A stretch of DNA of 63,717 nucleotides, filler included, from Collodictyon triciliatum (Eukaryota), in NCBI GenBank assembly GCA_043381765.1. It is 8 parts of 8 records of this genome, joined end to end, with 100 filler letters (N's around TTAATTAATTAA, not from the genome) between each part and the next. Parts side by side here need not be neighbours in the genome. Positions count along the whole stretch, not along the records: positions 44,623 to 53,411 come from JBHJMP010003279.1; 7 more parts are not named here. One strand, written 5' to 3'. The notes under the pieces are model-generated. The model was given only the letters and a program-made list of their open reading frames with translations. It was not told the origin of the DNA and searched no databases. The translations under genes and the position numbers were made by a program. This document shows positions 48,320 through 51,300 of the stretch, in pieces; the stretch's first letter is position 1, and the number at the start of each line of letters is the position of its first letter.

Positions 48320-51300
48320 ATGAGATTGAACTCAAAGTCTTTTGCAGCTCTGTTGCTTTTGGGTGAGTTTTACATTTTTATTGTTTTAATTTTATTGACT
48401 ACAAATTACATAATTTTGATTAATATATATTTAGGATTGATGCTCCACTGCCAATTGTGTCCTGTTAAAGGGCAAGTATCATCGATTTACACCGTCGGAA
48501 TTGGTCATACTAATACTGTTTTCAGTGTCGCTGTTACTCTTAATGGCTCAAAAATTGTTTCTGGAGGTCAAGATAGTACAATCAAAATCTGGAATTTTTC
48601 TGATGGAGCTTTGATTCGCACATTGACTGGTCATACTAATACTGTTTTCAGTGTCGCTGTTACTCTTAATGGCTCAAAAATTGTTTCTGGAAGTCAAGAT
48701 AGTACAATCAAAATCTGGAATCTTTCTGATGGAGCTTTGATTCGCACATTGACTGGTCATACATATGATGTTCGCAGTGTTGTTGTTACTCCTGATTGCT
48801 CAAAAATTGTTTCTGGAAGTAATGATAAAACAATCAAAATCTGGAATCTTTCTGATGGAGCTTTGATTCGCACATTGACTGGTCATACTCGTGTTGTTCG
48901 TAATGTTGCTGTTACTCCTGATGGCTCAAAAATTGTTTCTGGAAGCGAAGACAGTACAATCAGAATTTGGAGTCTTTCTGATGGGTATTTGATTCGCACA
49001 TTGACTGGTCATACTCGTGTTATTGGAAGTGTTGCTGTTACTCCTGATGGCTCAAAAATTGTTTCTGGGAGTGATGATAATACAATCAAAATTTGGAATC
49101 TTTCTGACGGAACTTTGATTCGCACGTTGACTGGTCATACCGATTCCGTTAACAGCGTTGGTGTTACTCCAGATGGTTCAAAAATTGTTTCTGGGAGTTA
49201 CGATAATACAATCAAAATCTGGAATCTATCTGATGGAGCTTTTAATCGCACATTGACTGGTCATACTCGTGTTGTTTGGAGTGTTGCTGTTACTCCTGAT
49301 GGCTCAGAAATTATTTCTGGAAGTGCTGATAGAACTGTAAGACTTTGGAATTTCTCTGATGAAAGCTTAATATACAGAGGCTCTAGAATTACAAGCATAA
49401 CTTCGTCTCAATCGAAATCAATAACAATATCAGGTCATTCAGACAATGTTATCAGAATTTGGAAATTATCCGATGGCGCTTTAATTCGCTCCTTGAATGG
49501 TCATTCAGACATAGTGAACGCATTAATATTTTCACCAGATACCTCCAAAGTAATTTCTGGAAGCAATGACAAATCGATCAAAGTCTGGAACGTGGATGAT
49601 GGAGTTTTTATTCAATCTTACCAGGTACACAATGATGCAGTCAACTCAGTTGCTTTAACTGCAGATGGAACAAAAATTATATCTGGAAGTAGCGATAAAA
49701 CAATCAAAATTACAAACATGTCTGATGGAAGATTAATTAGAGCGTTAATTGGACACACTGAAATAGTAACGACCCTTGATTTAACTTCCGATAATTCAAA
49801 AATTATATCCGGAAGTGCTGACAAAACAATCAAAGTTTGGAATTTTTTTGATGGAACATTAGTCCAAGATATAAAAGTTCACTCTGATGCGGTCAATTCT
49901 ATTGCTATAACGCCAGATGGAGCAAAAATTGTTTCTGCAAGCAGCGACAGAACAATCAAAATTACGAGCATTTTAGATGGGAGTTTAATTCGCACTCTCA
50001 ATGGGCACACTGGAATAGTCAAAACGGTTTCGATTTCTACGGATGGGTCAAAGATTATTTCTGGAAGCAGTGACAGGACAATTAGAATTTGGAGCCTTTC
50101 AACTGGAGTAACAATACATATAATGAACGAACACGTTGCAGCAATAAATGGAATATCAGTTCTCTCAGATGGCTTGAGATTTTTATCAGGAAGCGATGAC
50201 ACAACAATTAAAATGTGGAATTTTCCAGATTTCAGCTTGATTTTGACAGTTTCAGGTCACACAAACTCCATTAATAGCATTTCTTTGAGCCCAGATAAAA
50301 CAAAAATTGTATCAGGAGGCAGTGATAACACAATTAGAATATGGAATTATGCTGACGGTTCTCATGCACTTTCAATAAATGCACATACAAGTGCTGTGAA
50401 TAGTGTTGTTGTTTCGGTTGATGGAACAAAAATAGTCTCAGGAAGTAGCGATAAAACCGTTAAAATGTGGAATTTCTCTGATGCTTTACTATTGAGAACA
50501 TTTAGCGGTCATAATGCAGACGTTCGAAGCGTAGCAATATCATCAGATAGTTCAACAATAGTATCAGGAGGTGACGATATGAATATAAATATTTGGAGTG
50601 CTTCAGATGGAATTTTAACTCGTACCTTATCAGGACATACAAAAGGAGCGAATTCAGTTTTCATCACTCCAGATAATAGCAAAATTATATCAGGCAGTGC
50701 TGATTTTTCAATAAAATTATGGAATTTGTCAGATGGAGAATTAGTAAGAACCATAACCGGTCACGGAAATGCTGTCAGGTGTGTCATTACTTCTCCAGAC
50801 GGAACAAAAATTATCTCTGGAAGCAACGATAACACAATCAAAATTTGGAACATGTCAGACGGCTCATTAATTCGAACGCTTACTGGGCACTCAAGTTCAG
50901 TAAACAGTATTTCAATCTCAACAGATGGAACAAAATTATATTCTGGAAGCAGTGATAATTCAGTCAAAATTTGGACAATATCAGACGGCAGGAATATTCG
51001 AACACTTTTGAGTCACTTAAGCTCTGTCAATAGCGTTTTTGCAACTCCTGATTCGAAAATAATTTCAGCAAGCACTGATAGATTTATCAAAGTCTGGAGT
51101 CCGTGCCAAGGAGGATACTTTTTCAATCAACAATCAAATTCATGCGAAAAATGTCCGACTGGCTCTTACAATAATGGAAATGAACTCACCTCTTGTTTAT
51201 TATGTCCAACTGGAACTTACAATCCATCAACTGGTTCAACAAGTCTTAGAGATTGTCTTCTTTGCGAGGAAGGAACATTCAATAATCTTTTGGGCCAATC

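Follow-up and report, generated by a model that had tools for sequence, protein, structure and literature searches.

A candidate extracellular WD40 protein of Collodictyon triciliatum with a partly homogenised first propeller and a cysteine-rich stalk

Canonical WD40 propellers are regarded as intracellular scaffolds, and arrays whose repeats are alike except at the binding residues are a hallmark of fungal and bacterial NLR-type sensors. So far, this signature is known mainly from intracellular immune sensors. In the NWD repeats of Podospora, the four positively selected codons are codons 7, 9, 25 and 27 (Paoletti 2007), and high internal conservation in fungal NLRs has been defined as more than 85% amino-acid identity over at least 100 residues (Dyrka 2014). 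WD40 propellers that are repetitive, either locally or globally, are frequent and have emerged many times (Pereira and Lupas 2022, PMC9218822). A cysteine-rich rod (residues 1176-1853) is known from the Chlamydomonas mastigoneme protein MST1, where it follows a signal peptide and N-terminal globular domains; the rod measures 26 nm, contains 26 disulfide bonds and is part of an extracellular filament.

Here, we analyzed a gene of Collodictyon triciliatum (GCA_043381765.1) in which WD40 repeats are followed by a cysteine-rich array. The window, i.e. the whole stretch of DNA analyzed (63,717 nts), consists of pieces of about 8.8 kb glued by seven N44-TTAATTAATTAA-N44 linkers, one of which cuts off the 3' part of the gene at 53411. 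A single open frame runs from the ATG at 48320 to the N run at 53412 with no stop, and within a single exon, one frame of 1661 codons joins WD40 and Ephrin_rec_like repeats. The frame was read up to 53411, and the stalk repeat count and residue totals are lower bounds. The best 25 of the 57 Pfam families matched are all propeller families or Ephrin_rec_like. The features of the locus are as follows:

48320..48362, + strand: exon 1, with the start codon, the first 14 codons and one base of the signal-like leader (MRLNSKSFAALLLL-G)
48363..48434, + strand: putative phase-1 intron of 72 nts (GT..AG), in frame and stop-free
48435..48502, + strand: start of exon 2, with the leader end (LMLHCQLCPVKG) and a short pre-repeat segment (QVSSIYTVGI)
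48503..49384, + strand: WD40 repeats 1-7, propeller 1; homogenised tract from 48503 to about 49336; variable codons 4, 5, 7, 23, 25 and 36 of the 42-codon unit
49385..50254, + strand: WD40 repeats 8-14, putative propeller 2, from register and Pfam, with a presumed seven-bladed partition
50255..51103, + strand: WD40 repeats 15-21, putative propeller 3, ending ...KVWSP with the first cysteine directly after
51104..51886, + strand: divergent Ephrin_rec_like/TNFR-like cysteine-rich repeats (PF07699, MST1 match)
51887..53411, + strand: second young array of 279-nt (93-aa) cysteine-rich units, at least 5.5 copies (TRF), cut by the linker
53412..53511, no strand: window linker N44-TTAATTAATTAA-N44, non-biological, with a separate piece beyond

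Elsewhere in the window, a decayed WD40 stretch is also present. Four of the 100 other open frames have a weak or moderate Pfam match (HMG box, zf-RVT, PDEase fragment and DUF4062), and searches of the window for tRNA genes and Rfam families returned no matches.

The ATG at 48320 is the first one past an in-frame TAA (48311-48313). Removal of the putative intron, which has a G+C content of 15% versus 38.6% in exon 2, yields the leader MRLNSKSFAALLLLGLMLHCQLCPVKG, in which a hydrophobic core of 11 residues is accompanied by two basic residues and by small residues at VKG|Q. This core (residues 8-18, Kyte-Doolittle 2.79) is the sole strongly hydrophobic stretch of the 1673 residues available. 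The spliced leader does resemble a signal peptide, as previously proposed, with a putative intron splitting it. Because this intron is in frame and stop-free, the frame alone cannot decide on splicing; an unspliced leader would be a hydrophobic anchor of about 30 residues with no cleaved peptide. A related metagenome contig has a 2-nt insertion at 48409, within the putative intron (a single contig and a weak hint). The 27 leader residues and 10 more make up the 37 residues upstream of repeat 1, and the start of exon 2 is disordered in the model of propeller 1 (pLDDT 43 for residues 1-9 of the model). No hydrophobic segment was found between the WD40 part and the at least 22 Ephrin_rec_like repeats encoded by the same exon.

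By register, the WD40 part comprises 21 units: seven of 126 nts from 48503, a degenerate one of 114 nts at 49385 (repeat 8; 38 aa, lacking GH) and 13 of 126 nts from 49499. This count agrees with the preliminary description, which had listed 21 repeats, while PF00400 (E 1.2e-185) covers 20 stretches. Of the 126 nts, two distinguish repeat 1 from repeat 2, and the DNA identity among repeats 1-6 is 77-98%. At the amino-acid level, their mean identity is approximately 77% (143 differences over 15 pairs of 42 residues, counted by hand), and repeats 1 and 2 are the only pair exceeding 85% (95% over 84 residues). Repeat 7 is 66-76% identical to repeats 1-6 in DNA and is a mosaic, with 72-87% identity in its first 78 nts and 56-60% in its last 48 nts, which hints, at the sequence level, at conversion within the gene. 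TRF reports a tract at 48502-49332 with a period of 126 and 6.6 copies. The near-identity once ascribed to all of repeats 1-7 therefore holds for repeats 1-6, with repeat 7 partly homogenised. The remaining units are old and divergent, as had been stated: repeats 9-20 share 49-75% DNA identity among themselves, and repeat 8 is degenerate.

Repeats 1-7 fold as a seven-bladed propeller in the AlphaFold2 model (pLDDT 94.4, pTM 0.92, 28 strands), for which exactly seven repeats were supplied, so that the blade number was not free. Foldseek aligned this model to the seven-bladed WD40 structures 7big, 7bie and 2ymu with TM scores of 0.91-0.93; the best solved sequence match is also 2YMU (E 2.6e-170; TM 0.93). 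A prediction of all 889 WD40 residues with no alignment was discarded (pLDDT 47.5), being too poor to show propellers 2 and 3. An alignment of overlapping seven-repeat windows fell into true register but gave no additional information. The roughly 900 N-terminal residues probably form three seven-bladed propellers; of the triple propeller suggested earlier, the first is modelled directly, and the partition of the other two follows the repeat register. The WD40 part contains five Cys in about 905 residues, which are non-periodic and lack CRINKLY4-type disulfide stapling, and N-glycosylation sequons are not enriched in it (13 observed vs 13.4 +/- 3.0 in shuffles).

The blades of propeller 1 differ from each other at a few positions. 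In repeats 1-6, the framework is 90.9% identical, compared with 50.7% at six codons (4, 5, 7, 23, 25 and 36); in repeats 9-20, the corresponding values are 59.4% and 41.8%. The residues previously listed for repeats 1-7 at these sites (NT, NT, YD, RV, RV, DS, RV; F, F, R, R, G, N, W; and Q/S through A/R) are exact. Codons 5, 7, 23 and 25 correspond to Podospora codons 7, 9, 25 and 27, and these four were fixed beforehand from Paoletti 2007 for a test of selection. They carry 16 nonsynonymous changes over 9.8 sites, whereas all 42 codons carry 17 synonymous changes over 30.5 sites, giving an omega of 2.94 (binomial p 0.0022; one gene and small counts). For the six variable codons, pN is 0.55, compared with a pS of 0.19 and a pN/pS of 0.30 in the framework. 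These tests involve seven repeats of one gene, the counts are small, and repeats that exchange sequence are non-independent lineages.

Faces of the propeller were assigned by WD40 strand order and the literature, and the 16 most variable positions in 29 prokaryotic WD40 propellers served as the reference set of free positions. At least three states were found in repeats 1-6 at five of the six top-face positions versus one of the ten other free positions (Fisher p 0.0076). By analogy with other WD40 propellers, the variable residues would sit at the usual ligand-binding positions. The placement of the variable sites on the binding face is supported by this excess, with faces taken from topology, but it does not extend to codon 36, which is variable yet lies before strand D and hence on the opposite face by WD40 topology.

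Downstream of the propellers, PF07699 matches 22 stretches over 51095-53410 (E 3.7e-122), and NCD3G, TNFR_ELAPOR1_6th, TNFR_c6 and VSP are also matched by this region, which contains 84 Cys in 768 residues. Its closest and only strong solved relative is MST1 (PDB 8tx1; phmmer E 1.7e-39, 139.5 bits, four stretches), the best stretch aligning to MST1 residues 1663-1817. Against the VSP model PF03302, the stalk scores 37.1 bits (cut-off 31.4), with no single stretch passing alone. The 279-nt array (TRF, 88% matches) shows 83-91% nucleotide identity among units 2-6 and served as a young-array control: its pN/pS is 0.32, and 28 of its 93 codons are variable and scattered, with no clustering. The cysteine-rich stalk envisaged earlier is present with at least 22 Ephrin_rec_like repeats, although a rod that polymerises, like that of mastigonemes, is just as conceivable.

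We also looked for this gene elsewhere. No protein with both WD40 and Ephrin_rec_like was found in protein-database searches and one contig scan, and no close relative of the gene was detected in the protein or contig collections searched. Two distant loci were recovered from JGI metagenome contigs, neither of which extends across the WD40/cysteine-rich junction. Gene-identical pieces of 263, 151, 151 and 151 nts (0 differences) occur in four metagenome runs from four studies, and a further 250-nt piece has one difference to the gene. In a few single low-depth contigs, a stretch at codons 3-8 is replaced while the framework aligns on either side of it, and two of these contigs have a net skip of 378 nts, equal to three repeats. 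These metagenome joints hint at further variants but were set aside as evidence, being 151-nt contigs of at least 85% likeness that are not assignable to this locus, and a high metagenome depth at 48820-49371 was discounted because it stems largely from other organisms, whose conserved WD40 motifs give short matches. In the ESM Atlas, all clusters recovered were generic ones of either WD40 or Ephrin_rec_like (scores 0.86-0.90). The closest prokaryotic loci to propeller 1 are cyanobacterial (42-58% identity); this identity was not accepted as evidence that the propeller was acquired horizontally from cyanobacteria, given that consensus-like WD40 repeats of this class reach such values across kingdoms.

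Our preferred reading, held with moderate confidence, is that the gene product is a giant glycoprotein of a freshwater eukaryote, either secreted or exposed at the surface, in which a propeller binding head is carried on a rigid cysteine-rich rod. An extracellular location is likely on sequence grounds because the leader is signal-like, no hydrophobic segment separates the WD40 part from the at least 22 Ephrin_rec_like repeats and the closest solved relative of these repeats is the extracellular MST1 rod. A cleavable signal peptide would direct the chain into the secretory pathway, where residues 1 to about 900 would fold into WD40 propellers and the next 770 or more into a long disulfide-bonded rod of the mastigoneme-filament kind. 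Within an older propeller, a tract of 6.6 repeats may have been amplified or converted, with the old last half-blade kept. Since then, the blades would have stayed alike except in the D-A loop, the start of strand A and the B-C turn, i.e. the presumed ligand-binding top face, and selection may have kept or made these positions differ from blade to blade. In view of such top-face differences, propeller 1 is therefore predicted to serve, most likely, as the binding head, which the rod could hold off the cell or display along a filament. As for the variable surface-receptor system originally suggested, the likely extracellular location and the top-face nonsynonymous excess speak for it, but the amino-acid identity of about 77% falls short of 85%. 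With one copy in view, a young array that has been partly converted would explain the pattern as well as the ongoing reshuffling proposed earlier.

Several other explanations have to be weighed. Beta-propellers keep being re-amplified from single blades, and propeller 1 might be an ordinary, recently amplified propeller whose blades are now diverging and whose differences mark the least constrained surface positions, with no diversification mechanism or special recognition role. Repetitive WD40 propellers are indeed described as common and repeatedly arising (PMC9218822), the gradient of identity from 98% (repeats 1/2) to 66-76% (repeat 7) suits stepwise duplication or conversion, and the mean amino-acid identity is about 77% only, with a single gene copy seen. 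We nevertheless regard this explanation as rather unlikely, because off the top face just one of ten free positions shows three or more states (five of six on it), because the nonsynonymous rate at the four pre-defined codons is 2.9-fold the synonymous rate, and because the similarly aged stalk array lacks such a pattern. An assembly artefact or dead gene, i.e. a mis-assembled tract, a chimeric WD40/cysteine-rich join or a pseudogene open by chance, appears highly improbable. The N gaps of 373-591 nts in other pieces of the window indicate a scaffolded draft, in which near-identical repeats may have been miscounted, repeats 1 and 2 are only 2 nts apart, and the decayed WD40 stretch provides a local example of decay. 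However, a stop-free frame of 5 kb in DNA of 34-39% G+C is unlike decay, and purifying selection is visible in both framework (pN/pS 0.30) and stalk (pN/pS 0.32). Moreover, the sequence at the junction (51104) is unique and belongs to one frame, and identical short contigs, none shown across the junction, come from four independent metagenome runs.

The stalk raises the question of whether the protein is a mastigoneme-like structural hair or coat component, the rod of which dimerises and polymerises as in MST1, with the propellers as outer decoration that replaces Ig-like domains and binds no specific ligand. MST1 is the only strong solved stalk relative (139.5 bits, four stretches), its order of parts (signal peptide, globular domains, cysteine-rich rod) is the same, and the stalk array is itself expanding, as expected of a length-variable rod. 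The match, however, concerns a generic repeat type common to many protist surface proteins, and a purely structural role would leave the top-face-specific divergence unexplained; we consider it quite improbable. A propeller binding head on a rod remains our preferred reading, and an extension of it can be put forward, in which the protein is one member of an extracellular WD40 recognition repertoire at the cell surface or on surface hairs. Repeat conversion combined with diversifying selection, as in cytosolic NLR sensors, would then operate outside the cell. Blades would be exchanged within and between paralogs or alleles, creating novel surfaces that bind prey, kin, symbionts or pathogens and that are displayed one by one on stalks or in multivalent form along a filament resembling a mastigoneme. 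At present this extension should be viewed as unlikely.

In a full-text literature search, phrases for extracellular or secreted WD40 were very rare, with 2 hits in about 8.4 million texts. If the preferred reading is true, an NLR-type mode of receptor diversification would extend to the cell exterior, WD40 would join the few extracellular propeller heads (Sema, integrin, YWTD, Kelch and CRINKLY4), and a candidate for surface recognition would be available in a little-studied eukaryote. Even if it is only a young propeller, the locus would still be a clean eukaryotic, non-fungal case of local propeller re-amplification.

Among known systems, HET-E/HET-D/NWD of Podospora anserina resemble the gene at the level of repeats and likewise have 42-residue WD40 units with a near-identical framework. 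In both, divergence is concentrated in two residue pairs, which flank the conserved Val after GH and the conserved Asp of the B-C turn, respectively, with a nonsynonymous excess at corresponding codons (omega 2.94 here, from one gene). HET-E/HET-D/NWD possess an effector and a NACHT/NB-ARC NTPase, which the present gene lacks (37 residues before repeat 1), and they are cytosolic, whereas the signal-like leader and disulfide-rich partner would imply an extracellular protein. Furthermore, unlike in HET-E/HET-D/NWD, only 6.6 of 21 repeats are homogenised, and repeats 1-6 (mean of about 77%) miss the identity of more than 85% used by Dyrka 2014. The cyanobacterial WRAP-type repetitive WD40 protein Npun_R6612 (PDB 2YMU) shares the ...WN end of strand C, and proteins of this type and propeller 1 are both recently amplified as understood by Pereira and Lupas 2022 (PMC9218822). 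WRAP-type proteins are cytoplasmic and encoded in STAND/TIR operons, whereas the propeller here comes with an intron-split eukaryotic leader and an Ephrin_rec_like fusion.

On the extracellular side, MST1 shares with the gene, compared up to 53411, the order of a (signal-like) leader, globular domains and a growth-factor-receptor-type rod, but has nine Ig-like domains in place of WD40 propellers. MST1 also features a C-terminal poly(hydroxyproline)/poly-proline helix and polymerisation, a region for which the comparison stops at 53411. Giardia VSPs combine a CXXC-rich ectodomain with a C-terminal transmembrane helix and conserved tail; over the sequence up to 53411, the stalk only reaches the VSP model. 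The ectodomain of the plant receptor kinase CRINKLY4 resembles the gene in having an extracellular seven-bladed propeller with a TNFR-like cysteine-rich domain directly after it. Its propeller, termed a WD40 domain by the depositors, belongs to a different sequence family and is disulfide-stapled; CRINKLY4 has a single propeller with no repeat homogenisation and one cysteine-rich domain some 90 residues long, followed by a transmembrane helix and a kinase, whereas the gene here has at least 22 stalk repeats instead of one short domain, and five Cys with no stapling. Two protist proteins come close in architecture: P0133 joins a signal-like N-terminus and a Kelch propeller to Ephrin_rec_like repeats, and P0136 carries RCC1 blades with very high identity among themselves next to Ephrin_rec_like repeats, so that Kelch and RCC1, respectively, stand where the Collodictyon gene has WD40.

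The gene under study runs as one open frame from an ATG at 48320 to 53411, within the piece 44623-53411. Seven linkers split the 63.7-kb window into pieces of about 8.8 kb, and the window is not continuous genome.

Linkers (N44-TTAATTAATTAA-N44) in the window
8806-8905, linker
17754-17853, linker
26723-26822, linker
35624-35723, linker
44523-44622, linker
53412-53511, linker
62299-62398, linker

Because the gene meets the linker at 53412, its C-terminus is missing through window construction, and the sequence beyond 53511 is not its neighbour. In such a chain of pieces, two features separated by a linker are not adjacent in the genome, and a gene reaching the end of a piece is truncated artificially. 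No notable open frame was found in the 3.7 kb upstream of the gene (26% G+C). Composition is markedly unlike between pieces, and long microsatellite-like arrays (TTATG/TTATA-type and TTTTA-type units) lie at 54610-54975 and 56140-56230 in a piece of about 42% G+C. Two features suggest a large, repeat-bearing eukaryotic genome: a 356-aa open frame (56802-57872) with an HMG box at its C-terminal end (E 3.5e-11), and, at 18667-19047, a fragment carrying zf-RVT, a zinc-binding domain of reverse transcriptases. On the minus strand of another piece, a decayed WD40 stretch (about 36500-36980) may represent a pseudogene or else an exon from a different WD40 gene. A stop codon and a run of T interrupt its frames; it shows 35-43% identity to repeats 1-2 and contains a motif of the TPDGSKIVSG type resembling theirs.

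A 72-nt GT..AG stretch near the start of the gene (48363-48434; 15% G+C against 38.6% in the next exon) is a putative intron, which is in frame and stop-free, so that the frame leaves splicing unproven. In a related metagenome contig this stretch contains an insertion of 2 nt, which fits non-coding DNA, though as a single weak observation. The spliced protein begins MRLNSKSFAALLLLGLMLHCQLCPVKG. In its leader, a hydrophobic core of 11 residues (Kyte-Doolittle 2.79) is accompanied by two basic residues, with small residues ahead of QVSS; the unspliced N-terminus would be a hydrophobic anchor of about 30 residues. With either predicted N-terminus, the protein should enter the secretory pathway. 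No second strongly hydrophobic segment was detected in the 1673 residues available, the C-terminus being outside the window. Beyond the WD40 array, Pfam assigned 22 Ephrin_rec_like stretches when the stalk was scanned alone, together with NCD3G and TNFR-type models and a Giardia VSP model barely over the cut-off.

The preliminary description had counted 21 WD40 repeats, and the register indeed gives 21 units: seven of 126 nt from 48503, a degenerate one of 114 nt at 49385, and 13 of 126 nt from 49499 (Pfam WD40, E 1.2e-185, 20 stretches). Presumably, these form three propellers of seven blades. As had been stated, two of the 126 nt distinguish repeat 1 from repeat 2, and TRF reported 6.6 copies at 48502-49332. 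The claim that repeats 1-7 are near-identical and the later ones old holds for repeats 1-6 (77-98% identical) and for repeats 9-20 (49-75% pairwise identity), and only in part for the mosaic repeat 7 (49259-49384). Over its initial 78 nt, repeat 7 has 72-87% identity to repeats 1-6 and comes nearest to repeats 4 and 5, with RV codons common to all three; over the final 48 nt, identity falls to the level typical of the old repeats (56-60%). The boundary of the converted tract thus lies within this blade. That the homogenised tract stops within blade 7, at about 49336, suggests that it arose by amplification or conversion within an older propeller, not by insertion of a new one. Codons 4, 5, 7, 23, 25 and 36 of the 42-codon unit have 3-5 residue states in repeats 1-6, and 4-6 once repeat 7 is added. 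The variable residues originally listed for repeats 1-7 are exact, and the observation on the repeat array is confirmed.

An alignment-free model of the full 889-residue WD40 part was unusable (pLDDT 47.5). For propeller 1 (repeats 1-7), a 32-row alignment including two other stretches of the same protein and 29 translated prokaryotic stretches yielded a model with 28 strands from an input of exactly seven repeats (pLDDT 94.4, pTM 0.92), which Foldseek placed on the seven-bladed WD40 structures 7big, 7bie and 2ymu (TM 0.91-0.93). The strand list gives A 6-11, B 17-22, C 26-31 and D 37-42 by unit position. Codons 4 and 5 are in the D-A loop, 7 starts strand A, and 23 and 25 are in the B-C turn; WD40 topology and PMC1805685 predict these five on the top face. 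Codon 36 precedes strand D and by strand order and topology is on the opposite face.

DNA identity among repeats 1-6 is 90.9% in the framework and 50.7% at the six variable codons, the latter close to that of the same codons in old repeats 9-20 (41.8%; framework 59.4%). Nei-Gojobori sums gave pN 0.55 for the six codons, compared with framework values of 0.19 for pS and 0.30 for pN/pS. Because post hoc selection of the most variable codons biases such ratios upwards, sites were fixed beforehand. Paoletti et al. 2007 (PMC1805685) identified four positively selected codons in the Podospora NWD repeats. They form two pairs at the top of the propeller, one (7/9) around conserved codon 8 in the D-A loop and the other (25/27) around conserved codon 26 in the B-C turn. 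Aligned via conserved Val6 and Asp24, they correspond to codons 5/7 and 23/25 here. By a minimum-spanning count, these four codons had 16 nonsynonymous changes over 9.8 sites, against 17 synonymous changes over 30.5 sites for all 42 codons. The nonsynonymous excess expected of the variable sites was thus recovered at four predefined codons of one gene (omega 2.94, binomial p 0.0022, a small test on repeats whose lineages would not be independent where they exchange sequence); omega at the remaining codons was 0.42. For a neutral-decay control, 29 prokaryotic WD40 propellers were aligned to propeller 1 and their 16 most variable positions taken. At least three states in repeats 1-6 were seen at five of six top-face positions and one of ten others (Fisher p 0.0076, also a small test), and freely variable rim and bottom positions had not diverged.

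Among solved structures, only the Chlamydomonas mastigoneme protein MST1 is strongly related to the stalk (E 1.7e-39, 4 stretches). In MST1 (PMC11015965), a signal peptide and nine Ig-like domains are followed by a cysteine-rich rod that is 26 nm long and contains 26 disulfide bonds; dimerisation and polymerisation of this rod build an extracellular hair on the cilium. By analogy, the stalk may be a polymerising rod displaying many heads, an element absent from the preliminary interpretation. A second young array, of 279-nt (93-aa) cysteine-rich units, extends from 51887 to the cut at 53411 (at least 5.5 copies; units 2-6 83-91% identical), and duplication of such units is apparently lengthening the rod. 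As an internal control, this array had pS 0.26 and pN/pS 0.32, with 28 of 93 codons variable, scattered and of at most three states each.

Six metagenome runs (freshwater, lake water and subsurface) contain 5-7% of the gene's words. In all four runs examined, some short contigs match parts of the gene exactly or almost so, and many others do at 85-95%; therefore, the gene or close relatives occur in independent samples. None of the metagenome pieces shown from these four runs bridges the junction or the repeat tract.

We lean modestly towards a secreted or surface protein whose young propeller 1, borne on an MST1-type rod, would be a binding head under selection for differences between blades. 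A propeller that is merely young, as the identity of repeats 1-6 might imply, appears rather unlikely alongside the neutral-decay control. A structural hair protein would suit the resemblance of the stalk to MST1, and with the top-face divergence of propeller 1 it is judged distinctly unlikely. An artefact is considered very improbable. An actively reshuffled receptor repertoire, close to the original proposal, is unsupported and doubtful.

With regard to the novelty of the binding head and rod, no protein combining WD40 and Ephrin_rec_like repeats was found among the matches listed in four protein searches, in agreement with an architecture not already described. A 401-aa junction-centred search had both repeat types in none of 120 listed of 3483 proteins (8000 candidates). 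With 121 aa, 16 proteins of similar length among 97 candidates included none with both types, and among shorter proteins one of 40 candidates matched, cysteine-rich only. A full HMMER scan of 601 aa over the junction against 1.84 billion representatives gave 444,163 matches; both motifs were present in none of the 150 listed, whose best stretches pass the junction (query residue 330/331) by at most 7 residues. Among the 274 proteins gathered, the query alone had at least two of both motifs; one database protein (P0137) combines a single WD-like match with four cysteine motifs, its precomputed Pfam being Ephrin_rec_like only. As the searches cover the matches listed, absence of the combination elsewhere is unproven; a relative about 50% identical across the junction should have been listed.

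Phrases for extracellular or secreted WD40 occurred in two texts in a full-text literature search. On a metagenome contig (L001, 3-1652), a bacterial-type Ser/Thr kinase is followed by a hydrophobic segment and a WD40 propeller, which would be a prokaryotic WD40 predicted outside the membrane. Related designs include a protist protein (P0133) with a signal-like N-terminus, a propeller that is Kelch rather than WD40, and Ephrin_rec_like repeats, and plant CRINKLY4, with an extracellular propeller and a TNFR-like domain. In a JGI metagenome protein (P0136, 1311 aa), RCC1 blades with very high identity to one another adjoin Ephrin_rec_like-type repeats, a second instance of a locally repetitive propeller in that position. 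Compared with MST1, the part order is the same here, with WD40 propellers in place of Ig-like domains. Two features that define the HET-E/NWD family are lacking, as the NTPase is absent and amino-acid identity is about 77% against at least 85%; judged from its sequence, the protein is not a member of this family but apparently works like it at the repeat level.
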